Positions 1,793 to 28,611 of a stretch of DNA of 32,000 bases are shown here, in pieces. Made by a program: the position numbers and the translations under genes. The stretch spans positions 32,773 to 64,772 of the forward strand of contig NZ_NVQC01000024.1 in assembly GCF_003044035.1 (NCBI RefSeq), in the 5' to 3' direction. Every line of letters begins with the position of its first letter. Position 1 is the stretch's first letter. A model generated the notes under the pieces. It saw nothing but the letters and a program-made list of their open reading frames with translations. It did not search any database and was not told where the DNA came from. This DNA is from Candidatus Methylomirabilis limnetica. GTDB lineage: Bacteria; Methylomirabilota; Methylomirabilia; Methylomirabilales; Methylomirabilaceae.

Positions 1793-1793
<1 letters not shown>
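1655..1793. repeat. G/C-rich nested-palindrome element (outer stem closing two CCCC-GCT-GGGG hairpins)
   Basis: The outer arms gttccccctcacc (1655-1667) and ggtgaggggaac (1782-1793) are reverse complements. The inner hairpins lie at about 1673-1700 and 1752-1777, and both have a GCT apex. The last base is the first base of the thiC stop codon. Confidence 0.8.
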
Positions 1794-3184
<1,391 letters not shown>

Positions 3185-3195
3185 TCAACCTTTTC

Positions 3196-3288
3196 AGGAT
3201 GCTCCCTACGCTGGCATGACCCAGATCAGGTCCGACGGTCGACGACGGTTTCTGTCGCCCTCTCAGCCTGCTCCCGCAGACTCCCGTA
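3196..3288 (-). promoter_or_regulatory. TPP (THI-box) riboswitch aptamer upstream of thiC
   Basis: The minus strand reads ...GGGAGCAGGCUGAGAGGG...ACCUGAUCUGGGUCAUGCCAGCGUAGGGA. The conserved CUGAGA lies at 3260-3266 and the ACCUGAUCUGG..UGCCAGCGUAGGGA block at 3203-3231. Position and orientation are correct for thiC. Confidence 0.88.
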
Positions 3289-3353
3289 CCCGCTTCCTAT
3301 TGTTTTCTAATCTACCCCCAATCAACAGGGGTGTCAAGAATCCACCAAAAGAT

Positions 3354-3534
3354 GGTCTATCTGGTCTATTTGGTCTGTCTGGTCTGTCTGGTCTATTTGG
3401 TCTGGGACGAGAAAGACGGAATAGACCAGAAGGACGGAATAGACCGAAGATGGTCTATCTGGTCTTTCTGGTCCTTCTGGTCATTTGGTCGGTGACGAGA
3501 TAGACGAAATAGACGGAACAGACCGAATAGACCA
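3354..3534. repeat. GGTCTAT-family element, two adjacent long imperfect hairpins built from 9-bp tandem units
   Basis: Units start at 3354, 3363, 3372, 3381, 3390 and 3399 (GGTCTNTNT), and the inverted units AGACGGAATAGACC... run to about 3450. The second module (3452-3534) has the apex TTTGGTCGGTGACGAGATAGACGAAATAGAC. The element ends 2 nt before the rmuC stop codon. Confidence 0.92.
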
Positions 3535-3536
3535 AT

Positions 3537-4925
3537 TTACTCTGCCTCGTCGATATCGAATGCGGTCAGGCGTCGAGGCGCTTGATCGATCGGCTGCAGT
3601 TCCTGGATCTCCTTCTTGCCACCGGCTCCGAGCGCCTGAAACTTTCGGGCCGTGGGGAAGACGCGGCTCTCAAACGAGGCAACCGCGGCGTTATATGAAT
3701 CCACGGCCTTGCCAATGGCCCCACCGACCTTGAGGAGGTGCTCGGCAAGTATCCCCATCCGGTCGGCGAGTTCCTGGCCCAGGGCACAGATGCGCTGGGC
3801 GCTCTCCGCGACGAGTTCCTGTCGCCACCCATAGGCGATGGCCCGGAGTAGGGCGATAAAGGTCGAGGGTGTCGCGATGACGACCTTCTTCGAGATTGCC
3901 GATTCAACCAGAGCCGGATCCTTCTCGGCGGCTGCGGCGAGAAAGGAGTCGTTCGGGATGAAGAGTACGACGAACTCTGGAGCGGCCGCGAACTGATCCC
4001 AGTACTCTTTCGAGGCCAGCTTCGTGACGTGCTGGTTCACCTGTGCCGCATGCTTGAGGAGGGCCACTTCGCGTTCCTCATCCGTTTTGGCTTCCAGCGC
4101 CTCGAGGAATCCTCCGAGTGGGACCTTGGAGTCCACCACTACCTCGCGCCCGGCCGGAAGCTTGACGACCATATCGGGGCGGACACGCCCTTCTTCAGTT
4201 GTCACGCTCTCCTGTTCCACAAAATCGCAGTGGGGCGACATCCCGGCGAGCTCAGCCGTTTTCCGAAGCGCGATCTCCCCCCACCGGCCGCGAACCTGTG
4301 GGGATCTCAGGGCGTTGACCAGCTTGGCGGTCTCACTCTGAAGGGTGGTCTGACTCAGGGCGACTGCACGCAGTTGTTCCCCCACTGTGCTGTACTCTCT
4401 GAGCCGTTTCTCTTCGAGCGCTTTTGTCTCTTGCTGATAAATGGAGAGGGTTTCGCTGAGTGGGTTAATAATAGTCTCGATCGCTTTTCTACGAGCGTCC
4501 AAATCGACAGTAGCTTCATCCTTCAGCGCCTTGAACTTCTCCTCGGCGAGGATGAGGAACCCTGTGTTGTTACCGGCCAGCGCTTCAGCCGCAAGCGACT
4601 TGAATGTATCAGTGAGCCGGGTCTTTGCATCCTCCAGGAGCGCTTTCTGCTCAGTAAGGTTTTTGTCGGTCTCGACGACTCGAGTTTCGGCGGCAGTCCT
4701 GGCTGTCTCAGCCTGTCGTAAATCCTCGCGCAAGGTGTCGAAGTCCTCCCTGGCCGAGGCGAGCTGGATGCGAATCTCCTCAACCCGCGCCTCTGCGGCC
4801 GCGGTTCGCGTCTCCTGATCTCGCAAGATGGAGCCCGCTGCTGCCTTGGTCCGGGCCGCGCTTATCACCCATCCAAACCCGGCGCCGATCACGAGCCCCA
4901 ACAGCAGGATCATCCATTCTGTCAT
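3537..4925 (-). CDS. rmuC: DNA recombination protein RmuC
   Basis: 462 aa. It has an N-terminal TM helix, a long Ala/Glu/Arg coiled-coil region and a C-terminal RmuC nuclease-like domain (PDMVVKLPAGREVVVDSK, FVVLFIPNDSF). Confidence 0.85.
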   Translation of the reverse strand: MTEWMILLLGLVIGAGFGWVISAARTKAAAGSILRDQETRTAAAEARVEEIRIQLASAREDFDTLREDLRQAETARTAAETRVVETDKNLTEQKALLEDAKTRLTDTFKSLAAEALAGNNTGFLILAEEKFKALKDEATVDLDARRKAIETIINPLSETLSIYQQETKALEEKRLREYSTVGEQLRAVALSQTTLQSETAKLVNALRSPQVRGRWGEIALRKTAELAGMSPHCDFVEQESVTTEEGRVRPDMVVKLPAGREVVVDSKVPLGGFLEALEAKTDEEREVALLKHAAQVNQHVTKLASKEYWDQFAAAPEFVVLFIPNDSFLAAAAEKDPALVESAISKKVVIATPSTFIALLRAIAYGWRQELVAESAQRICALGQELADRMGILAEHLLKVGGAIGKAVDSYNAAVASFESRVFPTARKFQALGAGGKKEIQELQPIDQAPRRLTAFDIDEAE

Positions 4926-4952
4926 ATTGAGTTCCCTAGAAAATGTCTAACT

Positions 4953-5102
4953 GGTCTATCTGGTCATTTGGTCTGTTTGGTCTGTTTGGTCTATTTGGTC
5001 TGTTTGGTCGGTGACGGAGTAGACGAAATGATCCGCTGTCGATTTGGTCGGTGACGAGATGGACGAGATAGACCAAATAGACCAGATAGACGAAATAGAC
5101 CC
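4953..5102. repeat. GGTCTAT-family element, second locus (long hairpin with duplicated apex motif)
   Basis: 9-bp units (one of 8 bp) start at 4953, 4962, 4970, 4979, 4988 and 4997. Apex motifs TTTGGTCGGTGACGGAGTAGACGAAAT (5003-) and TTTGGTCGGTGACGAGATGGACGAGATAGAC (5043-5073) are present. The inverted arm ATAGACCAAATAGACCAGATAGACGAAATAGACC runs to 5102. Confidence 0.92.
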
Positions 5103-5121
5103 AAGCCGGCCCATGCGGTCA

Positions 5122-6564
5122 TCACCCTTTGATGACGCCCATGGGGCGGAGGCGGGCGACCATCTTAGAGAGGCCGGCACGGTGAACAACCGTCACCACT
5201 TGGGTCACATCCTTATACGCCTCGGGCATTTCTTCAGCCAACGACTCCTGGCCGGACGCCTTGACAATGATCCCTTGATCCTCAAGCTCCCTGTGTATGG
5301 CGCGACCTTTGGCGGCCTTGATGGCGGCATGGCGACTCATGACCCTGCCAGCTCCATGGCAGGTACTCCCGAAGGTCTGCTCCATGGCGCCCGTTCCCAC
5401 CAGCACAAAGGAGGCCCGGCCCATGTCACCAGGGATGAGCACAGGTTGGCCGATGGCCTGGTAGTGAGCCGGCAGCTCCGGGTGCCCAGGCGGGAAGGCT
5501 CGCGTTGCGCCCTTCCGATGGACCGCCAGCTTAAGCCGCCTGCCCTCGACCTCGTGCTCCTCTACCTTGACGATGTTGTGGGCTACATCATAGACCGTGG
5601 AGAGTCCCAATGTCCTGGGGGAGATGCCAAAGACCTTCAGGAATACCTCCTTCGCCCAGTGGGCCAGACATTGGCGATTGTTCCAGGCAAAGTTGGCGGC
5701 GGCCCGCATGGCGCCAAGGTACTGCGTAGCCTCTGGCGACTTCCAAGGCGTACAGGCGAGCTGCCTGTCTGGGAGCTCTATCCCATACTTCCTCACTGCC
5801 CGCTCCATTTCGACGAGAGAATCTGTGCAGACTTGGTGCCCCAGGCCTCGAGAACCGGTATGAATCATCACGGTCACTTGGCCCTCGAACAGACCGAGAA
5901 CCTCGGCGGCATGGGGATCGTAGATCTCGGCGACGGCTTGGACCTCCAGGAAGTGATTGCCGGAGCCTAACGTTCCGAGCTGGCTACTCCCCCGCTCAAG
6001 GGCTTTATGGCTTACGGCATCCGGATCAGCGTCCGCAAGGCACCCGCCGGATTCGATGCAGGCAAGGTCTGCCGGCTCTCCGTACCCCTGTTTAACAGCC
6101 CATGCTGCGCCTTTGAGCAGCGGCGCCTCCATCTCCTGCCTGCTCAAGCGGATCCGGCCCCGTGAGCCGACGCCGGTTGGGATTTCGCTGAACAGGGCGA
6201 GGACCAACTCCTTGAGCTTTGGCCGCACCTCCTCTTTTGTCAGCTCCGTACGAAGCAATCGAACCCCACAGTTGATGTCGTACCCGACCGCGCCGGGAGA
6301 CACGACACCATCGGTGATGTCCGTGGCAACCACCCCACCGACCGGAAGACCGTACCCCTGATGGATGTCGGGCATGGCAAAGGAGGCCTTGACGATCCCC
6401 GGCAGGAAGGCTCCATTAGCCACCTGCTCCAAGGAGAGGTCCTTCATGATCGCTTGCATCAGGATGTCATCGGCATAGATGATCCCCGGAACACGCATCC
6501 CAGGTTTGTAATCTTGCGGGAGTAGCCATCGATAGTCATCGAGCTGTTGTACACCCTTGCTCAC
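5122..6564 (-). CDS. rtcB: RNA-splicing ligase RtcB (3'-phosphate/5'-hydroxyl RNA ligase)
   Basis: RtcB motifs PDIHQGYG, GSGNHFLE, HTGSRGLGHQV and GSTCHGAGR are present. The ORF track starts at TTG 6570. I prefer GTG 6564 because AAGAGG sits exactly 6 nt upstream of it. Confidence 0.92.
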   Translation of the reverse strand: MSKGVQQLDDYRWLLPQDYKPGMRVPGIIYADDILMQAIMKDLSLEQVANGAFLPGIVKASFAMPDIHQGYGLPVGGVVATDITDGVVSPGAVGYDINCGVRLLRTELTKEEVRPKLKELVLALFSEIPTGVGSRGRIRLSRQEMEAPLLKGAAWAVKQGYGEPADLACIESGGCLADADPDAVSHKALERGSSQLGTLGSGNHFLEVQAVAEIYDPHAAEVLGLFEGQVTVMIHTGSRGLGHQVCTDSLVEMERAVRKYGIELPDRQLACTPWKSPEATQYLGAMRAAANFAWNNRQCLAHWAKEVFLKVFGISPRTLGLSTVYDVAHNIVKVEEHEVEGRRLKLAVHRKGATRAFPPGHPELPAHYQAIGQPVLIPGDMGRASFVLVGTGAMEQTFGSTCHGAGRVMSRHAAIKAAKGRAIHRELEDQGIIVKASGQESLAEEMPEAYKDVTQVVTVVHRAGLSKMVARLRPMGVIKG

Positions 6565-6576
6565 GTCCAACCTCTT

Positions 6577-6628
6577 GCGTTCATGGCGTTCATGGCGTGT
6601 GGCGTTGATTGCGTCTGTGGCGTGGATT
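6577..6628. repeat. one-armed tandem array of six GCGT-initiated 7-9 bp units
   Basis: The units are GCGTTCATG GCGTTCATG GCGTGTG GCGTTGATT GCGTCTGTG GCGTGGATT. No inverted partner was seen. The array begins directly next to the rtcB Shine-Dalgarno sequence. Confidence 0.8.
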
Positions 6629-6653
6629 AGTGCTCAGCGCAGAAAATAGCTTA

Positions 6654-6712
6654 CCCCCTTTCCCGAAGCGAGGATTGACCCCTCTTTGGAAAAGAGGGGC
6701 GAGGGGAGATTT
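6654..6712. repeat. G/C-run palindromic (REP-like) element just downstream of mqnC
   Basis: A perfect 9-bp stem CCCCTCTTT-GGA-AAAGAGGGG at 6679-6699 is flanked by ccccctttccc and ggggcgaggggag. The element ends 2 nt before the mqnC stop codon. Confidence 0.75.
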
Positions 6713-9871: not shown

Positions 9872-10203
9872 CGGCGCGGTTTGCCTCTGGACTCAACGTC
9901 TCCGCCTGCCTGTTGCGTGCCTATACCGTCGATCTGTTTGAGGAGAGCAATCGCACTCAGTTCGTAGCTATGGCGCGCCTGCTCATAGTCTTCGAGACTG
10001 AGCCTCCCAGCCTGGTAATCGAACTCAAGCTCCTTGATTGCGGCATATACCATTTGCTTCTCGGCCAGGAGCTCCTGCAACTCGGTCTGTTCTGACCACA
10101 GTGGAACTCCATTAGACGATCTGAAGAACGGCATGATTACCGGCAAGAGGGCGAGAAGAACTAGCAGGATGATAATTAGTATTAACATTATGGTTGGGTT
10201 CAA
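9868..10203 (-). CDS. small membrane protein, CcmI/CycH N-terminal-like (one TM helix plus helical tail)
   Basis: Hydrophobic N-terminus (LILIIILLVLLALLPVIM), then LQELLAEKQMVYAAIKELEFDYQAGRLSLEDYEQ. This resembles the LxELxxDxxxGxL segment of CcmI. The stop overlaps the mqnE ATG. The start is ambiguous: TTG 10203 lies inside the repeat array, and ATG 10188 is the alternative. Confidence 0.5.
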   Translation of the reverse strand: MNPTIMLILIIILLVLLALLPVIMPFFRSSNGVPLWSEQTELQELLAEKQMVYAAIKELEFDYQAGRLSLEDYEQARHSYELSAIALLKQIDGIGTQQAGGDVESRGKPRR

Positions 10204-10323
10204 CGTTCAATGTTCAACGTTCAACGTTGCACCCCGAACATTGCACGTTGAACATTGCACTTTGAACGTTGCACGTTGAACATTGCACTTTGAACGTTGC
10301 ACGTTGAACATTGAACGTTGAAC
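10198..10323. repeat. array of 18 consecutive heptamers (GTTCAAC x4, then GTTGAAC/GTTGCAC variants) with a 28-bp higher-order repeat
   Basis: The heptamer phase is unbroken from 10198 to 10323. The first four units are the reverse complement of the later GTTGAAC units, so a hairpin can form. The segments 10254-10281 and 10282-10309 are identical 28-mers. Confidence 0.93.
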
Positions 10324-10840: not shown

Positions 10841-10881
10841 AGGAACTCTGAACTTTGAACCTTGAACGTTGAACGTTGAAC
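10841..10881. repeat. short array of five to six xTTGAAC heptamers, same family as 10198-10323
   Basis: aggaac TCTGAAC TTTGAAC CTTGAAC GTTGAAC GTTGAAC lies in the 86-nt ccmG-ccmH spacer. Confidence 0.85.
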
Positions 10882-10886
10882 GCAGA

Positions 10887-11405
10887 TCAGAGCATCTCAT
10901 CGATCTTTGCCTTCAGCACCTTCGCGTCGACGGCTCCGACGTGTTTGTAATGAATCGTGCCGTCCTTCGTAATGAAGAAGGTCTCCGGTACGCCATAGAT
11001 ACCATAGTCAATGGAGATCTTTCCCTGCGGGTCAGGACCGCTTGGAAAGCTGAGCTTGAGCCGCTCGATGAACGCCTTTGCATCAGCATCCCGATCCTGG
11101 ATATCCACCCCAATGACCATCACCCCTCGATCCCGGTAGGTCTGCCAGGCGGCCTCCAGGTGTGGCGCTTCTTCGTAGCAGGCTGGGTAGCACCAGGAGG
11201 CCCAAAAGTTCAGGACCACGACCTTCCCACGGAGCTGCTCCAGGCTGGTGCTGCTTCCATCAAACATGGAAAGAGCGAACGCGGGCGCCTGGTGTCCCAC
11301 CAGCGGCGATGGCACCTCCCTCGGGTTGGTCTTGAAGCCGTAAGCCAGGAGCAGTAGGAGTGGGATAATGCTGAGCAGCAGGCTTAGCTTCTTCCAGGTT
11401 GCCAT
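10887..11405 (-). CDS. ccmG: thiol:disulfide interchange protein CcmG/DsbE (thioredoxin fold)
   Basis: TM anchor, WASWCYPAC (CxxC) and YGVPETFFI motifs. The start is set at ATG 11405 (MATWKKLS...), which overlaps the ccmF 3' end by 22 nt. The longer ORF-track start is unsupported. Confidence 0.85.
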   Translation of the reverse strand: MATWKKLSLLLSIIPLLLLLAYGFKTNPREVPSPLVGHQAPAFALSMFDGSSTSLEQLRGKVVVLNFWASWCYPACYEEAPHLEAAWQTYRDRGVMVIGVDIQDRDADAKAFIERLKLSFPSGPDPQGKISIDYGIYGVPETFFITKDGTIHYKHVGAVDAKVLKAKIDEML

Positions 11406-13384
11406 GCCATCTGCTCCTCCACCTGGTTTGCAGCGAGGGCCCGTCTCCGGTCGGGCCAGATCGCGATCAGCGAGCCCAGGACCATCACCCAGCCACCAAG
11501 CCAGATCCACATCACCAGCGGGCGAACCAGCGCCTTCACGGTGGCGGTAGTTCCATCCTGCGCAAACGACGAAAGGACCAGGTAGAGATCCTCCCGTGCC
11601 GTAGAGCGGACATCGACGGTGCCGATCGGCTGTTGCTCGGCCGGATAAAACCGCTTGGCAGGCCGCATCTCGGCTACCTTTTGATTCGAGTTGAAGACCG
11701 TAAAGCTCCCTTGCACTACAAAGCGATGCGGCTCTTGCCAGGCGCTGAGTTCGTCAAATCGAACCTGGTACCTACCAAGCTGGAGCGACTCGCCTTTCTT
11801 CAGGGTGACCTCCTGCTCCAGCTTGAAGACCGACGAGGCGGTAATACCGACCACGACGAGCGCTACCCCCAGATGGACTATGAGGCCGCCATAGCGCCGT
11901 CGGCCCCGGCTGGTGAGTTTCGAGAGCGCGACCAGATACCCCTCTCCTGTTTTTCGACGTCGCGTTATGGCGCCACTGGCAAACTCCTGAATGACGGTAA
12001 TGGCGGCAAACAGGCTGAAGGCAAAGGCCAGGAGCGGGTACAACCCACGAACCCCAAGGAACCAGCAGATACCGGCTCCCGGAATAGTGAGGCACAAGGG
12101 TATGGTAAAGGTCCGTCGCAGGCTATCGAGCGAGGCGTGTCGCCAGGCGATCAGCGGTCCGATGGCCATCAGGAAGATCAGACCCAAGCCGATAGGAACG
12201 TTCACCGCGTTAAAGAACGGCTCGCCCACGCTAACCTTGACCCCGCGAACCGCCTCGGACAGGAGGGGAAACAGCGTACCAAGGAGGACCGCAAACGCGA
12301 ATCCCAGCAGTAACAGATTGTTCGTCAGGAAGGCGCTCTCGCGGGACACCAGTGAATCGATATCGCCTTCCGCCTGTAACTTGTCGCTCCGGTACACCAT
12401 GAGACCGAAGGAGAAAAACAGGATCAGGCCGATGAAGACCAGAAACAACGGCCCGACGGTCGAGTCAGAGAACGCGTGAACAGACGAGAGAATACCGCTT
12501 CGCGTAAGAAAGGTGCCGAAGATGGTCAGCGCGAAGGTGATGATGATCAGCGCCACGTTCCAGAACTTCAGCATCTTTAGTCGCTCCTGGATCATGATCG
12601 AGTGTAGAAATGCCGTGCCGGTGAGCCAGGGCAGCAACGAGGCGTTCTCCACTGGGTCCCAGGCCCAGTAACCGCCCCATCCCAATACGTCGTAGGACCA
12701 CCGCCCCCCGACGATAATGCCGACCGTAAGGAAGGCCCAGGACGCGAGCGACCAGCGGCGTACGGCCCTGATCCATGCCTCACCGAGCCGACCGGTGATC
12801 AGGGCGGCTATGCCGAAGGCATACGGAATGGACCAGCCGACATAGCCGGCGTACAGGCCGGGGGGGTGAACCGCCATCAGGGGATGATTTTGCAGAAGCG
12901 GATTCGGCCCGCGCCCGTCAAGTGGCACTGGGAACATCGTGGTAAAGGGATTGGCCGGAAAGGCCACCAGGATGAGGAAAAAGGTCAAGATGCACAGCAG
13001 GACAGCCGTCACGTACGGGATCAATTCACGCTGCCGCTTCCTCTCGAACATCACCGTGAGGAGGGTCATCAGGGCCAGCAGCCAGACCCAGAGCAGAATT
13101 GAGCCCTCGAGCGCTCCCCACAGTGCAATTATCGTGTAGAATAGCGGTGTATCAAGGCTGGCATTCCTGGCAACGTACTGAAGGCTGAAGTCGTGGCCGA
13201 CCAGCCCAGCCTCCATCAGCAGGATTGCGAAGGTGCTGAGGCCAAACACCGAGACTACCGCTCCTTGGCCGCTCTCGATCATGGCCGGTTGACGCCGCCG
13301 CGCCCCCATGATAGAGACGAACGCGCCGTAGACCGCGATGGCGAGGGCCAACCAAAGACTGAACCGGCCAAGTGTCGCAATCAT
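11384..13384 (-). CDS. ccmF: cytochrome c heme lyase subunit CcmF
   Basis: 666-aa polytopic membrane protein with the WWD motif (GWGGYWAWDPVEN). ATGA overlap with the ccmE stop. Confidence 0.93.
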   Translation of the reverse strand: MIATLGRFSLWLALAIAVYGAFVSIMGARRRQPAMIESGQGAVVSVFGLSTFAILLMEAGLVGHDFSLQYVARNASLDTPLFYTIIALWGALEGSILLWVWLLALMTLLTVMFERKRQRELIPYVTAVLLCILTFFLILVAFPANPFTTMFPVPLDGRGPNPLLQNHPLMAVHPPGLYAGYVGWSIPYAFGIAALITGRLGEAWIRAVRRWSLASWAFLTVGIIVGGRWSYDVLGWGGYWAWDPVENASLLPWLTGTAFLHSIMIQERLKMLKFWNVALIIITFALTIFGTFLTRSGILSSVHAFSDSTVGPLFLVFIGLILFFSFGLMVYRSDKLQAEGDIDSLVSRESAFLTNNLLLLGFAFAVLLGTLFPLLSEAVRGVKVSVGEPFFNAVNVPIGLGLIFLMAIGPLIAWRHASLDSLRRTFTIPLCLTIPGAGICWFLGVRGLYPLLAFAFSLFAAITVIQEFASGAITRRRKTGEGYLVALSKLTSRGRRRYGGLIVHLGVALVVVGITASSVFKLEQEVTLKKGESLQLGRYQVRFDELSAWQEPHRFVVQGSFTVFNSNQKVAEMRPAKRFYPAEQQPIGTVDVRSTAREDLYLVLSSFAQDGTTATVKALVRPLVMWIWLGGWVMVLGSLIAIWPDRRRALAANQVEEQMAWQPGRS

Positions 13385-17395: not shown

Positions 17396-18126
17396 CAACT
17401 CGCGCCTCGAACGATAGCTGGTACATCCCTTTCGATTCTACCCGCCTGGCTCCTCGAACAGAAAAGTTCAGGCAACGACGTAGGCAGAAGAGACACCCCA
17501 AACTCAACCTCGAAACGTTCGATAAGAGCCACCATCACCTCACGAACTGAGATTGGACGAGACAACTCCTGTGTCATGCTTGTCATCTTGGCGCCCTGGA
17601 TACCGCAAGGAACGATCATCTCAAACGGCGCCAGATCCATATTGATGTTCAGCGCGAAACCATGACGGGTGACCCACCGGCTGACATGAATGCCTAGCGA
17701 GGCAATCTTCTCTTCACCCACCCAGACGCCCGTCCGACCGAGTGAGCGACCAGCAGCGATCCCGAAGCCCGATAGGGTCATAATCAGCACCTCTTCGAGC
17801 TGCCGAAGGTATCGATGCAGGTCACGACCATGTTCGGTCAGATTGAGGATCGGGTAGCCTACTAACTGGCCAGGACCGTGATAGGTCATGTCGCCACCAC
17901 GCTCCACTTCGAAAAACTCGATTCCCATCGCGGCCAGGGAAGATTCCGGTACGCGGAGGTGAGCCATCTGCCCGGCTCGCCCGAGGGTAATAACCGGCGG
18001 GTGTTCGACGAGGAGCAGGACATCCCCCAGGCGGTCCTCAGCCAGAAGAGTCGCCAGCCGGCGTTGCAGGGTGAGTGTTTCGGTGTAGGGTATGAGCCCA
18101 AGGTCAATCAGGCTACAGGTCGGCAT
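17395..18126 (-). CDS. lipB: octanoyltransferase LipB
   Basis: Motifs RGGDMTYHGPGQLVGYPIL and the active-site PCGI. The start is set at ATG 18126 (MPTCSLIDLGLIPY...) by alignment logic with LipB N-termini. The ORF-track extension to 18189 reads through the AGGGT repeat. Confidence 0.88.
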   Translation of the reverse strand: MPTCSLIDLGLIPYTETLTLQRRLATLLAEDRLGDVLLLVEHPPVITLGRAGQMAHLRVPESSLAAMGIEFFEVERGGDMTYHGPGQLVGYPILNLTEHGRDLHRYLRQLEEVLIMTLSGFGIAAGRSLGRTGVWVGEEKIASLGIHVSRWVTRHGFALNINMDLAPFEMIVPCGIQGAKMTSMTQELSRPISVREVMVALIERFEVEFGVSLLPTSLPELFCSRSQAGRIERDVPAIVRGAS

Positions 18127-18128
18127 CA

Positions 18129-18249
18129 GTAGTACAGGGTAGAGGGTTGAGGGTATAGGGTTTAGAGTGCAGGGAAAGGACGGGAGCACAACTTATTCAT
18201 ACTTCTTTTCTCCTATCTTATCCTCTACCCTCTACCCTATAGCCTATAC
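18129..18249. repeat. hairpin element with arms made of xxAGGGT heptamers
   Basis: The left arm is ACAGGGT AGAGGGT TGAGGGT ATAGGGT TTAGAGT GCAGGGA (18134-18175). The spacer is about 35 nt. The right arm carries inverted ACCCTCT/ACCCTAT units (18211-18249). The element starts 3 nt from the lipB ATG and ends 9 nt from the lpdA stop. Confidence 0.9.
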
Positions 18250-18258
18250 GCTTCTTCT

Positions 18259-19671: not shown

Positions 19672-19733
19672 GGTTTATCTGATCTATACATAAAGCCATA
19701 ATCCGAAATAATGGACGTTATTGCCCAGAAAGT

Positions 19734-19826
19734 CCCCCCCCCCATCCTCACCTTCCCCCTCATGGGGGGGAAGGGACCCCTTACGCGACCTCCTCCCCCC
19801 TTGAGGGGGAGGATTGAGGTGGGGGG
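19734..19826. repeat. G/C-rich nested-palindrome element, same architecture as 1655-1793
   Basis: The outer arms are C10-ATCCTCACC and GGATTGAGGTGGGGGG. The inner hairpins are CTTCCCCC..GGGGGAAG (19752-19773) and TCCTCCCCC-CTTGA-GGGGGAGGA (19791-19813). Confidence 0.8.
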
Positions 19827-19857
19827 TAATGGGTAACCAGAAAGGCACTGACCAGCG

Positions 19858-21096: not shown

Positions 21097-21123
21097 TGTG
21101 CGTATGTCTCCTCTTCTTATTTT

Positions 21124-21251
21124 GGTCTATTTCGTCTATCTGGTCTATTTCGTCTATCTGGTCTATTTCGTCTATCTGGTCTGTTTGGTCTATCTGGTCT
21201 GTTTGGTCTGTGACGAAATAGACTGAATAGACGAGAAGGACGGAATAGACC
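21124..21251. repeat. GGTCTAT-family element, third locus, with an 18-bp higher-order repeat
   Basis: GGTCTATTTCGTCTATCT occurs three times (21124-21177), followed by GGTCTGTTT/GGTCTATCT units. The apex is TTTGGTCTGTGACGAAATAGACTGAATAGAC (21202-21232). The shorter inverted arm ends in ATAGACC, whose last base starts the pdhB stop codon. Confidence 0.92.
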
Positions 21252-25292: not shown

Positions 25293-25320
25293 AGCTATTA
25301 GCTATTAGCTATTAGCTGCT
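25293..25320. repeat. AGCTATT x3 plus AGCTGCT heptamer array at the fdhD/PHP gene junction
   Basis: Read directly from the sequence. It encodes the last codons and the stop of fdhD (QQLIANS*) and places stop codons in all six frames. Confidence 0.9.
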
Positions 25321-27394: not shown

Positions 27395-27412
27395 CGTCGC
27401 CACCCTTGACGC

Positions 27413-27575
27413 GTAACTACTCAGGTGTTTAGACTGAAGGCTGAAGACTGAAGGTTCTAAATTGCCTCGCAAGGCACGAGTCGAGCCATTCAAGACCTTT
27501 TCGGAGTTTTATATGATCACGCATGACTTACCCCTAAAAGCCTTCAGCCTTCAGCCTATCTACCTGAGTAGCTAC
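27413..27575. mobile_element. MITE-like element: about 35-bp terminal inverted repeats containing CTGAAGG heptamers, flanked by an 8-9 bp direct duplication
   Basis: The left end is GTAACTACTCAGGTGTTTAGACTGAAGGCTGAAGACTGAAGG. The reverse complement of the right end is GTAGCTACTCAGGTAGATAGGCTGAAGGCTGAAGG. (C)CTTGACGC occurs immediately outside both ends (27404-27412 and 27575-27583). No ORF lies inside. Confidence 0.7.
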
Positions 27576-27599
27576 CTTGACGCAACACGCGCGACTTCC

Positions 27600-28145
27600 C
27601 TATGCCGTCCTTCGCCAAGGGAGGTGGAAGAGGCCCTGGCTGCTCGGCCGTTCCTTGGCGATCTTTTCCTGCAACAGCATGATCCCATGGATCAGCTGCT
27701 CCGGCCTGGGCGGGCAGCCGGGAACATAGACATCCACCGGAACAACCTGATCCACACCCTGAACGATGGTATAGGTGTTGAAGATTCCGCCGCAGGAGGC
27801 ACACGCGCCCATGGCGATCACCCACTTTGGCTCAGGCATCTGATCGTAGATCCGTCTCAGGACTGGGGCCATCTTGCGGCTCACGCGGCCGGCCACAATC
27901 ATCAGGTCGGACTGACGTGGCGACCCACGAAAGACCTCCGCCCCGAATCTGGCAAGATCGAAACGCGACGCGCCCGTTGCCATCATCTCAATAGCACAGC
28001 AGGCAAGCCCGAAGCTCGCCGGCCAGATCGACGACTTCCTCGCCCAATTGATCAGGCTATCCAGGGTTGTGAGGAGGAGGCCCCGCTCAAATTCCTCCGC
28101 TTCGGCCTTGGAGGGCAGGATGTCGTTCTCCGTCAACTGAAGCAT
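27600..28145 (-). CDS. nuoB: NADH-quinone oxidoreductase subunit B (NuoB/PSST, N2 cluster)
   Basis: Motifs [18 protein letters not shown] and GCPPRPE carry all four N2 cysteines. 181 aa, with GAGGA 8 nt upstream of the ATG. Confidence 0.9.
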
Positions 28146-28158
28146 ACGATGTATCCTC

Positions 28159-28306
28159 GTAACTACTTAGGTGTTCAGGCTGAAGGTTGAAGGTGATGCA
28201 TTATCTCGCACAGCACAAATCAAATGCCAGAAGTTTTTTGCGATCACTGCTTTATACCTAACAGCCTTCAGTCTTCAGCCTTCAGTCTATCTACCTGAAT
28301 TGTGAC
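28159..28306. mobile_element. second, more diverged copy of the CTGAAGG-armed element
   Basis: The left end is GTAACTACTTAGGTGTTCAGGCTGAAGGTTGAAGG. The right arm is CCTTCAGTCTTCAGCCTTCAGTCTATCTACCTGAATTGTGAC. The internal part is recognisably homologous to copy 1 (ATTATCTCGCACAGCAC versus ATTGCCTCGCAAGGCAC). I can see no flanking duplication. Confidence 0.6.
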
Positions 28307-28308
28307 AA

Positions 28309-28611
28309 TCAGCAACCACAGTCCGCCTTCGGGTTGGGGTTCTTCAGGCTGAAGCCGGCCCCCTGTAAGCCGTCGATATAGTCGATCTCGGAGCCGGCCA
28401 GGTAGGTGTAGCTCTGCGGGTCCACCAGGACCTTGACACCGTTCGTCTCGAAGACTTGATCGGCCGCCTGGGGGTGGTCGAACTCCATCTCGTAGGAGAG
28501 GCCGGAGCAGCCACCGCCGATGACGCGGACGCGCAAGCCTTCTTCAGAATTCTCCTGCGTCTTGAGCAAATCAGCCACTTTCGTTGCAGCCGACTCGGTA
28601 AGGGTAATCAT
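28309..28611 (-). CDS. iscA: A-type iron-sulfur cluster carrier (IscA/ErpA/HesB family)
   Basis: 100 aa from ATG 28611, with AAGGAGG 6 nt upstream. The family cysteines are in GGGCSG and the C-terminal DCGC. The ORF-track N-terminal extension is unsupported. Confidence 0.88.
   Translation of the reverse strand: MITLTESAATKVADLLKTQENSEEGLRVRVIGGGCSGLSYEMEFDHPQAADQVFETNGVKVLVDPQSYTYLAGSEIDYIDGLQGAGFSLKNPNPKADCGC

Follow-up and report, generated by a model that had tools for sequence, protein, structure and literature searches.

A candidate REP/MITE-like family of palindromic repeats with tandem 9-nt arms in Candidatus Methylomirabilis

We analyzed a 32,000-nt stretch of DNA (hereafter the window, meaning that whole stretch) and found five palindromic modules at three loci within these 32 kb of the home genome. 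We judge the chances to be about even (probability roughly 0.5) that they belong to a dispersed, non-autonomous, imperfectly palindromic, REP/MITE-like repeat family of Candidatus Methylomirabilis, the arms of which expand by slippage. The best reading is that this family is one of several 7- or 9-nt tandem-armed hairpin families that occupy post-stop gaps in the Methylomirabilis lineage. Judging from their sequences, the modules evidently derive from one another by copying, across spacers and across species alike, and they are present or absent at orthologous spacers. After arrival, the modules evidently change, to go by the blocks preserved in the arrays, through replication slippage or unequal exchange in steps of 9, 18, 27, and ~88 bp.

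Anatomy of the modules

Locus 1 (3354-3534), which extends from rmuC toward the thiC riboswitch, reads exactly as the first-pass annotation had described it: inspection of the sequence reveals two adjoining palindromic modules of phased 9-bp units. On the plus strand, the units are GGTCTATCT at 3354, GGTCTATTT at 3363 and 3390, GGTCTGTCT at 3372 and 3381, and GGTCTGG at 3399. These six phased units, of the form GGTCTRTYT, lead to the loop TGG (3403-3405) and then to inverted units (3406-3445). The second module consists, on the same strand, of a left arm (3452-3490), the loop GGT (3491-3493), and a right arm (3494-3534). All genes neighboring loci 1-3 are on the minus strand, and the features are listed here in the gene sense.

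21121-21251, minus strand: locus 3, within the pyruvate dehydrogenase operon, in the E1-beta/E2 spacer
4945-5101, minus strand: locus 2, in the rtcB/rmuC spacer
3537-4925, minus strand: rmuC (Pfam)
3494-3534, minus strand (gene-sense): module 1a, 5′ arm, GGTCTATTC GGTCTGTTC CGTCTATTT CGTCTATCT CGTC
3491-3493, minus strand: module 1a, loop, ACC (GGT on the plus strand)
3452-3490, minus strand: module 1a, 3′ arm, GACC AAAT-GACC AGAAGGACC AGAAAGACC AGATAGACC
3446-3451, minus strand: linker between modules 1a and 1b, ATCTTC
3406-3445, minus strand: module 1b, 5′ arm, GGTCTATTC CGTCCTTCT GGTCTATTC CGTCTTTCT CGTC
3403-3405, minus strand: module 1b, loop, CCA
3354-3402, minus strand: module 1b, 3′ arm, GACC AAAT AGACC AGAC AGACC AGAC AGACC AAAT AGACC AGAT AGACC
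3309-3337, minus strand: sigma-70-like thiC promoter (TTGACA, 17-nt spacer, TAGATT), directly downstream of locus 1
3186-3297, minus strand: thiC TPP riboswitch (Rfam match)
1793-3169, minus strand: thiC

The 5′ arm of module 1a begins 3 nt past the rmuC stop codon (3537-3539), and its 3′ arm includes one 8-nt unit. The 3′ arm of module 1b stops 16 nt short of the -35 box of the thiC promoter; the sequence UCUUUU follows 2 nt beyond the stem. Modules 1a and 1b together form an 88-bp tandem duplication with 83% matches, as detected by TRF. Loci 1 and 2 were identical in three independent assemblies (SRR6684601, SRR24858483, and SRR24858484), indicating that they are not an assembly artefact. 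Locus 1 had been called non-coding, and rightly so: it is bounded by a stop codon on one side and by a promoter or start codon on the other, and its 8-nt units break the reading frame. A coding reading was rejected because these units and stop codons disrupt the frames, and CRISPR and tRNA-like readings were ruled out on anatomy.

Where the first-pass annotation had pictured two back-to-back hairpins, the minimum-energy fold of locus 1 is instead a single nested hairpin on both strands, in which the stem made by the outer arms (3362-3402 with 3494-3534) surrounds that of the inner arms (3406-3445 with 3452-3482). The nested form gains ~13 kcal/mol over side-by-side hairpins (-98.0 vs -85.2 on the plus strand, and -75.5 vs -62.6 on the minus strand), and the folding z-scores of the locus were -8.7 and -9.3. 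Complementarity between arms was 70-85% and nearly unchanged by a 9-nt register shift, in agreement with the earlier proposal that pairing can occur in several registers.

Locus 2 begins ~20 nt past the rtcB stop codon (5122-5124) and stops ~19 nt before the rmuC start (4925). Between its long outer arms (4945-5009 and 5053-5101) are two apexes, with loops at 5010-5012 and 5050-5052, and a short inner arm belongs to each apex. The 5′ arm of locus 3 (21212-21251) is four units long and shares its first base with the TAG stop codon, namely the G; the loop (21209-21211) is followed by a 3′ arm of ~10 units (21121-21208) with a higher-order period of 18 bp. The E2 Shine-Dalgarno sequence GAGGAG and start codon are located within 27 nt of locus 3. 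TRF found period-9 arrays at all three loci, including 4952-5100 and 21121-21209, as well as higher-order repetition at 18 bp (97% matches), 27 bp (96%), and 88 bp (83%). The 9-mer matched 51 times in the window, vs 18.8 expected.

A conserved apex motif had been reported at five sites across the three loci. We found the apex core TTTGGTCKGKGACGA at all five (3396, 3484, 5003 with one mismatch, 5043, and 21202), whereas 0.18 occurrences were expected by shuffling and the observed count was reached in 0 of 100 shuffles. The accompanying idea of a conserved 31-nt core that carries the arms was not supported as stated, as mean pairwise identity within the window was 77% for core and arms alike. 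The supposed core is a mere junction of the innermost inverted units around a 3-nt loop, which varies among modules (ACC, CCA, ACA, ACT, or CCC on the minus strand); the conserved entity is the whole module, unit-variant order included.

Shared unit order at non-orthologous spacers

Each module spans ~90 nt. In minus-strand order, a 5′ arm of ~4 units that alternate between (G/C)GTCTATTC and CGTCYTTCT is followed by the junction CGTC-NNN-GACC and then by a 3′ arm of AAAC/AGAT-AGACC units. The pattern SGTC-NNN-GACCAAAY was present in 11 modules from five species-level genomes, at no fewer than five different spacers, all in Methylomirabilis DNA. Five of these modules are in the window; the others are in L128 (two copies), L134 (two copies), L004, and L005, relatives that we refer to by L numbers. 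The pattern occurred in 0 of ~115 metagenome contigs that share the 9-mers, and this junction is diagnostic of the Methylomirabilis family. The exact 23-nt apex pattern matched only two MAGs among the GTDB representative genomes. The home genome is that of a relative of Ca. Methylomirabilis (NC10): RmuC of the window shares 88% identity with a protein from Ca. Methylomirabilis sp. and 83% with that of M. lanthanidiphila, and E1-beta is 95% identical to a protein named Ca. Methylomirabilis oxyg[eniifera] (truncated name).

Comparison of arms between loci revealed a common register. In register, 5′-arm identity was 89% for module 1b vs locus 3 and 86% for module 1b vs L004, falling to 60% and 62%, respectively, after a 9-nt shift; between locus 3 and L134, the 3′ arms were 94% identical in register and 71% identical after the shift. 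Because non-orthologous loci share unit-variant order in register, the modules are best regarded as copies of one ~90-nt element, although ectopic gene conversion between arrays could likewise yield shared unit order. In 10 aligned modules, 69.9% of cells paired, vs 29-39% when the partner was slid by 1-3 columns. The mismatches were conserved as well: columns 20/30 held C.C in 9 of the 10 copies, and columns 11/39 were unpaired in 8. Conserved stem irregularities are typical of hairpins that are recognized as single-stranded DNA, such as REPs, IS200/IS605 ends, and attC sites, a resemblance that we treat as a lead.

At both gathering and permissive thresholds, Rfam returned only the TPP riboswitch, and the sub-threshold matches were generic miRNA-precursor hairpins. 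Literature searches with the unit sequences and for NC10/Nitrospira repeats, STRR, nonamer repeats, and intercistronic tandem-repeat stem-loops yielded no matching description. These searches of Rfam and the literature thus gave no described family to which the element could be assigned, in line with the first reading of the sequence, which had not recognized it.

The metagenome scan for the array AGACCARAY x2.5 gave more than 120 contigs with GC contents of 23-67%, and hairpin-type arrays were restricted to contigs of 51-63% GC. One hairpin-type contig is from Nitrospirota, and its apex differs from that of the Methylomirabilis family; the hairpins in these contigs are of other apex types. 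Arm polarity was fixed, the G/T-rich arm being 5′ in 52 cases and 3′ in 1. We rejected the idea that the AGACCARAY 9-mer is universal and special: in viral contigs, shuffled-unit controls gave 4, 9, and 23 matches vs 19 for the real unit. Because these controls are about equally frequent, the wide spread of the bare 9-mer is no evidence of function. AGACC is also the site of the type III restriction enzyme EcoP1I; this match was treated as coincidence, since sister unit families have no AGACC.

Presence, absence, and turnover at orthologous spacers

Orthologous regions were compared in about ten Methylomirabilis genomes plus metagenome contigs. The modules occupy a short gap, 0-20 nt past the upstream stop codon and before the next promoter or ribosome-binding site. 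At rmuC/thiC, L128 has a single short module with the same flanks as in the window, indicating an orthologous insertion. ACGC-type 9-mer arrays fill this spacer in L132-L134, opening with a GGGTC(T/A)ATC remnant in L133 and L134; in L130 the same position is taken by a canonical C6/G6 hairpin with AUUU after it, and L126 has no element. In L126/L127 (RmuC 87% identical), the spacer is just 41 nt (L126 11404-11446) and has neither the TPP riboswitch nor the promoter region; the riboswitch is kept in all other relatives examined.

These comparisons supported the original suggestion that the arms are expandable and vary in unit number. The rmuC/thiC spacer holds two modules over ~181 nt in the window vs one module of ~50 nt in L128, and at one orthologous site the 5′ arm has four units in L004 vs one in L005. 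The 18-, 27-, and 88-bp block duplications detected by TRF are recent. Strain-level comparison of lengths covered three near-identical Logan assemblies, which were 100% identical and hence uninformative on unit number.

At rtcB/rmuC, the family was found in the window and L134 only; elsewhere this spacer is empty or contains either a C/G-run hairpin or unidirectional 9-mer arrays that extend as far as the start codon. The mqn/rtcB spacer is an empty 23 nt in L126, carries the family in L128 and L134, and carries other hairpins in the window and L130. Because orthologous spacers in L126 and L130 lack it, the element is dispensable at individual sites.

At E1-beta/E2, a long tandem-armed hairpin was present in all five Methylomirabilis genomes, with differing unit families: 9-mers in the window, and elsewhere 7-mers of the GGGTATAG type, the GGGTAAAG/CCCTACA type, and the GAGTTTT type. 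In four of the five genomes, these hairpins had z-scores of -3.9 to -4.8. At E2/E3, L194 carries a variant of the family with the junction AGTC-AGAT-AGACC, which is outside the SGTC-NNN-GACCAAAY pattern. At E3/LplA, a GGGTATA/TATACCC hairpin was found in four of the five genomes (window, L193, L194, and L195) and a partial 5′ arm in L192; in the window (18120-18255), the 7-mer arms GGGTAGA/GGGTATA and TCTACCC/TATACCC surround a ~55-nt center.

Possible spread and role of the modules

If the modules form a REP/MITE-like family, they would reach new spacers by a transposition-like or templated copy-paste route. The single-stranded hairpin might be recognized by an HUH/RAYT-type enzyme, which we propose because the mismatches are conserved across copies. 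No transposase domain was found among the genes of the syntenic loci examined. No direct repeats flank any module, so there is no target-site duplication, and the filled and empty mqn/rtcB sites (L134 vs L126) likewise revealed no duplication. The flanks of nine modules differ (AAATT, GCTTG, ATTTA, AGTTG, AACTC, and others), with no conserved tetranucleotide. As no transposase, target-site duplication, or conserved flank was found, the copying mechanism is purely what we infer.

In mRNA, a module would form a long hairpin with regular mismatches and thereby loop out the insert, so that insertion would be tolerated inside operons. At most, it may play a REP-like role, blocking 3′ exonucleases or serving as a partial terminator or insulator; in the case of locus 1, such a role would be to shield the thiC promoter and riboswitch from rmuC read-through.

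Alternative explanations

The modules might instead be RNA structures under selection, that is, hairpins that punctuate operons and in which sequence is free to turn over because structure alone matters; the roles envisaged are terminator or insulator, RNase processing site, mRNA-stability element, and stop-to-start juxtaposition. We consider this explanation possible but somewhat improbable. It would account for the tandem-armed hairpin at E1-beta/E2 in five of five genomes despite differing unit families, and for the GGGTATA/TATACCC hairpin at E3/LplA in four, but mobile hairpins that target the post-stop gap would give equally conserved occupancy. The hairpins begin 0-5 nt past stop codons, and in L134 and L194 the start codon is 3-4 nt beyond the 3′ arm, so that folding sets stop and start side by side. 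The C6/G6 hairpin with AUUU in L130, at the position of locus 1, and the UCUUUU past module 1b also favor a selected RNA. However, hairpin potential is not conserved at the two rmuC-flanking spacers, where the A/C-rich arrays of several relatives are unstructured (z near 0), and some orthologous spacers are empty. Covariation, which had been put forward as a test of pairing, gave no support: the 10 aligned modules contained 0 compensatory pairs, with a score below the shuffle mean that was reached by 474 of 500 shuffles, and the orthologous E3/LplA hairpins contained just one, in alignments of tandem repeats whose ambiguity limits covariation tests on these hairpins. In the window, the hairpin in gene-sense RNA was 11-33 kcal/mol weaker than in antisense, and 29 hairpins showed no consistent sense bias (18 vs 11, p = 0.2). 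Locus 3 speaks against termination in particular, since a complete stop to transcription within the pdh operon would do harm. A terminator scan of 3100-5300 with a simple pattern did not flag the element; it flagged only the riboswitch terminator (3178-3155) and, by chance, a plus-strand site (3439-3458). A broader form of the idea, in which tandem-armed hairpins are operon punctuation throughout the Methylomirabilota, and probably the Nitrospirota too, seems to us quite doubtful. With tandem arrays on both sides, the stem pairs whatever the register; if this idea is true, slippage would alter stem length without destroying the hairpin, and each intercistronic junction would gain a heritable, finely adjustable control of read-through, mRNA half-life, or stop-to-start coupling. 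Occupancy of E1-beta/E2 and E3/LplA by changing units would then be the signature of selection on architecture alone.

We considered two further explanations. The arrays may be purely local minisatellites, formed by independent slippage and template switching (quasi-palindrome formation) in A/C-rich 9-mer arrays with no copying between loci. This would fit the higher-order tandem periods, a turnover of unit types in orthologous arrays that resembles concerted evolution, and the orthologous pair L011/L110, one of which has the 3′ arm only and the other both arms; near-exclusive periods of 9 and 7 suggest a lineage-wide mutational tendency. Yet unit order is common to loci 18 kb apart and, across species, to non-orthologous loci, identity is 83-89% in register vs ~60% after a 9-nt shift, and one junction type recurs at five or more different spacers. 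This shared order of unit variants, in which GGTCTATTC and CGTCYTTCT alternate, already disfavors local origins, which we regard as unlikely. Lastly, motifs spaced by 9 nt could serve as a periodic landing pad for an iteron-type DNA-binding protein or a ring-shaped RNA-binding protein (such as Rho), with one YC per unit on the A/C-rich, G-poor strand and a complementary arm that masks or unmasks the pad. In unidirectional AGACCARAY arrays from metagenomes, the A/C-rich strand is the sense strand in 46 cases vs 13 (p = 2e-5), and in 18 vs 3 among arrays that cannot be coding, but this bias is confounded with replication direction and the gene calls are crude. The sense-strand 3′ arm of hairpins is longer (53 vs 39 nt) and purer, and the near-invariant 5′ position of the G/T-rich arm (52 vs 1) points the same way; in L004 and L005, however, the element is opposite to gene orientation. 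Unrelated units (GGGTATA, CTGAAGG, GAGTTTT, and ACGCAATCA) fill the same spacers, which makes a single binder unlikely, and in viral contigs the real unit and its shuffled versions occur at similar frequencies. We hold a landing pad to be very improbable.

Comparison with known repeats and terminators

Under the preferred reading, a dispersed repeat family with slippage-prone arms, the modules resemble the RAYT-mobilized REP/BIME/REPIN elements of proteobacteria. Both are imperfect palindromes outside genes that recur at separate sites, adjoin stop codons or lie between cistrons, occur in cluster and tandem arrangements, are dispensable at any one site, and carry conserved stem irregularities that tell the two strands apart. 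REPs number tens to hundreds of extragenic copies per genome; the element has five modules at three loci in 32 kb. As in REPs, the imperfect palindrome is able to form a hairpin, but its arms are far longer: REPs are 20-40 nt and have no internal periodicity, whereas the element has arms of ~40 nt or more of tandem 9-mers, pairs independently of register, and changes length by slippage. REPs have a GTAG-like 5′ tetranucleotide, and none was present at the flanks of nine modules; REPs are also accompanied by a cognate single-copy RAYT (Y1/HUH transposase) gene, and no RAYT gene was seen within the 32 kb of the home genome.

MITEs such as pneumococcal BOX, Neisseria Correia, RUP, and ERIC are likewise small, non-autonomous, hairpin-forming intergenic repeats, and BOX also contains an internal module in variable number (the boxB units). 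Whereas MITEs have terminal inverted repeats, target-site duplications, and a known parent IS, no target-site duplication was found for the element, nor, in the DNA covered here, a parent IS, and its entire arm is a micro-tandem array. The STRR heptamers of heterocystous cyanobacteria are similar in being dispersed intergenic arrays of short units with several unit families per genome, and the home genome of the window has separate 7-mer families too. The element differs from STRR in its 9-nt unit, its NC10 host, and its inverted arm pairs with a family-specific junction, which, as far as we know, are not part of the definition of STRR, repeats that are not known to have a function. With intrinsic terminators, the element shares a hairpin right after the stop codon and, at module 1b, a U-rich stretch thereafter (UCUUUU). 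However, intrinsic terminators have a G+C-rich stem of 5-20 bp with a U run 0-2 nt after it; the stem of the element is far longer, A/U-rich, and regularly mismatched, its U-tract is short and offset, one locus lies within the pdh operon, and both orientations occur.

The stability of mRNA, its termination, and the plasticity of genomes are all shaped by REP, BIME, and MITEs, which have been studied almost wholly in proteobacteria and firmicutes. The present family belongs to uncultured, biogeochemically important NC10 methanotrophs, and we know of no previous description of its architecture, a spreading palindrome with micro-tandem arms. Arms of this micro-tandem kind allow the element both to reach other spacers and to vary in length where it sits. 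With its sister 7-mer families, it makes up much of the intergenic DNA in these genomes, and it is a hazard for annotation and assembly, since it gives rise to spurious ORFs and to false miRNA-model matches, lengthens gene calls, and causes repeats to collapse. Hairpins of this kind would be a simple and evolvable means of regulation if they do tune the expression of operons.

Other tandem arrays in the window and its relatives

Periods of short tandem arrays were tallied in two sets of Methylomirabilis loci, drawn from the window, L004, L005, L126-L134, and L192-L195. Over ~130 kb of Methylomirabilis loci, the arrays were nearly all of period 9 (24) or 7 (15); one of these two periods was found in 39 of 44 arrays in the first set and in 14 of 17 in the second, and periods 6, 8, and 10-12 were nearly absent.

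A 9-mer array of the ACGCAATCA/CATGAACGC type, with an A/C-rich sense strand, is located just upstream of the rtcB start in the window (6577-6623). This family takes the place of the GGTCTAT family at the rmuC-flanking spacers of L128, L132, L133, and L134. In L128 (9958-10001), L133 (394-427), L126 (9961-9995), and L134 (8847-8925), arrays leave only 3-6 nt ahead of the rmuC start, and a canonical Shine-Dalgarno sequence is absent. In L126, L128, and L133, the final one or two units become ...ATGGAC..., which may supply a weak GGA Shine-Dalgarno sequence; the L134 array ends in ...AGAGAGACGAAC. Arrays of 9-mers also enter coding sequence: RmuC of L126 is five residues longer and terminates within a GACTCAATA array (11378-11411). 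In L011 (~2500-2560), the upstream ORF reads through a AGACCAGAC array to a later stop codon, and in the orthologous L110 the ORF stops ahead of the hairpin version of the array.

Two copies of a ~150-nt element with arms of CTGAAGG/CCTTCAG 7-mers are present in the window (27410-27600 and 28150-28310). Its outer ends resemble terminal inverted repeats (ACTACTCAGGT...ACCTGAGTAGT), its center is partly conserved, and both L193 and L195 have it upstream of the Oxidored_q6 gene; its appearance suggests a separate MITE or a structured RNA. A third hairpin family, in which C-runs pair with G-runs (for example, CCCCCCACC...GGGGGGAGG), is represented in the window at ~19700-19835 (E2/E3) and ~6650-6705 (mqn/rtcB), and its relatives occupy other spacers in L130, L132, and the metagenome contig L014. 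GTTCAAC/GTTGAAC heptamer arrays flank a ccmH-like gene of the window (10198-10323, 18 copies; 10849-10882, 5 copies), and the matching spacers in L128 contain 21 heptamer copies and a 14-mer array of 16 copies. Finally, a perfect AGCTATT x3.6 array is situated at the FdhD/PHP gene junction of the window (25293-25317).
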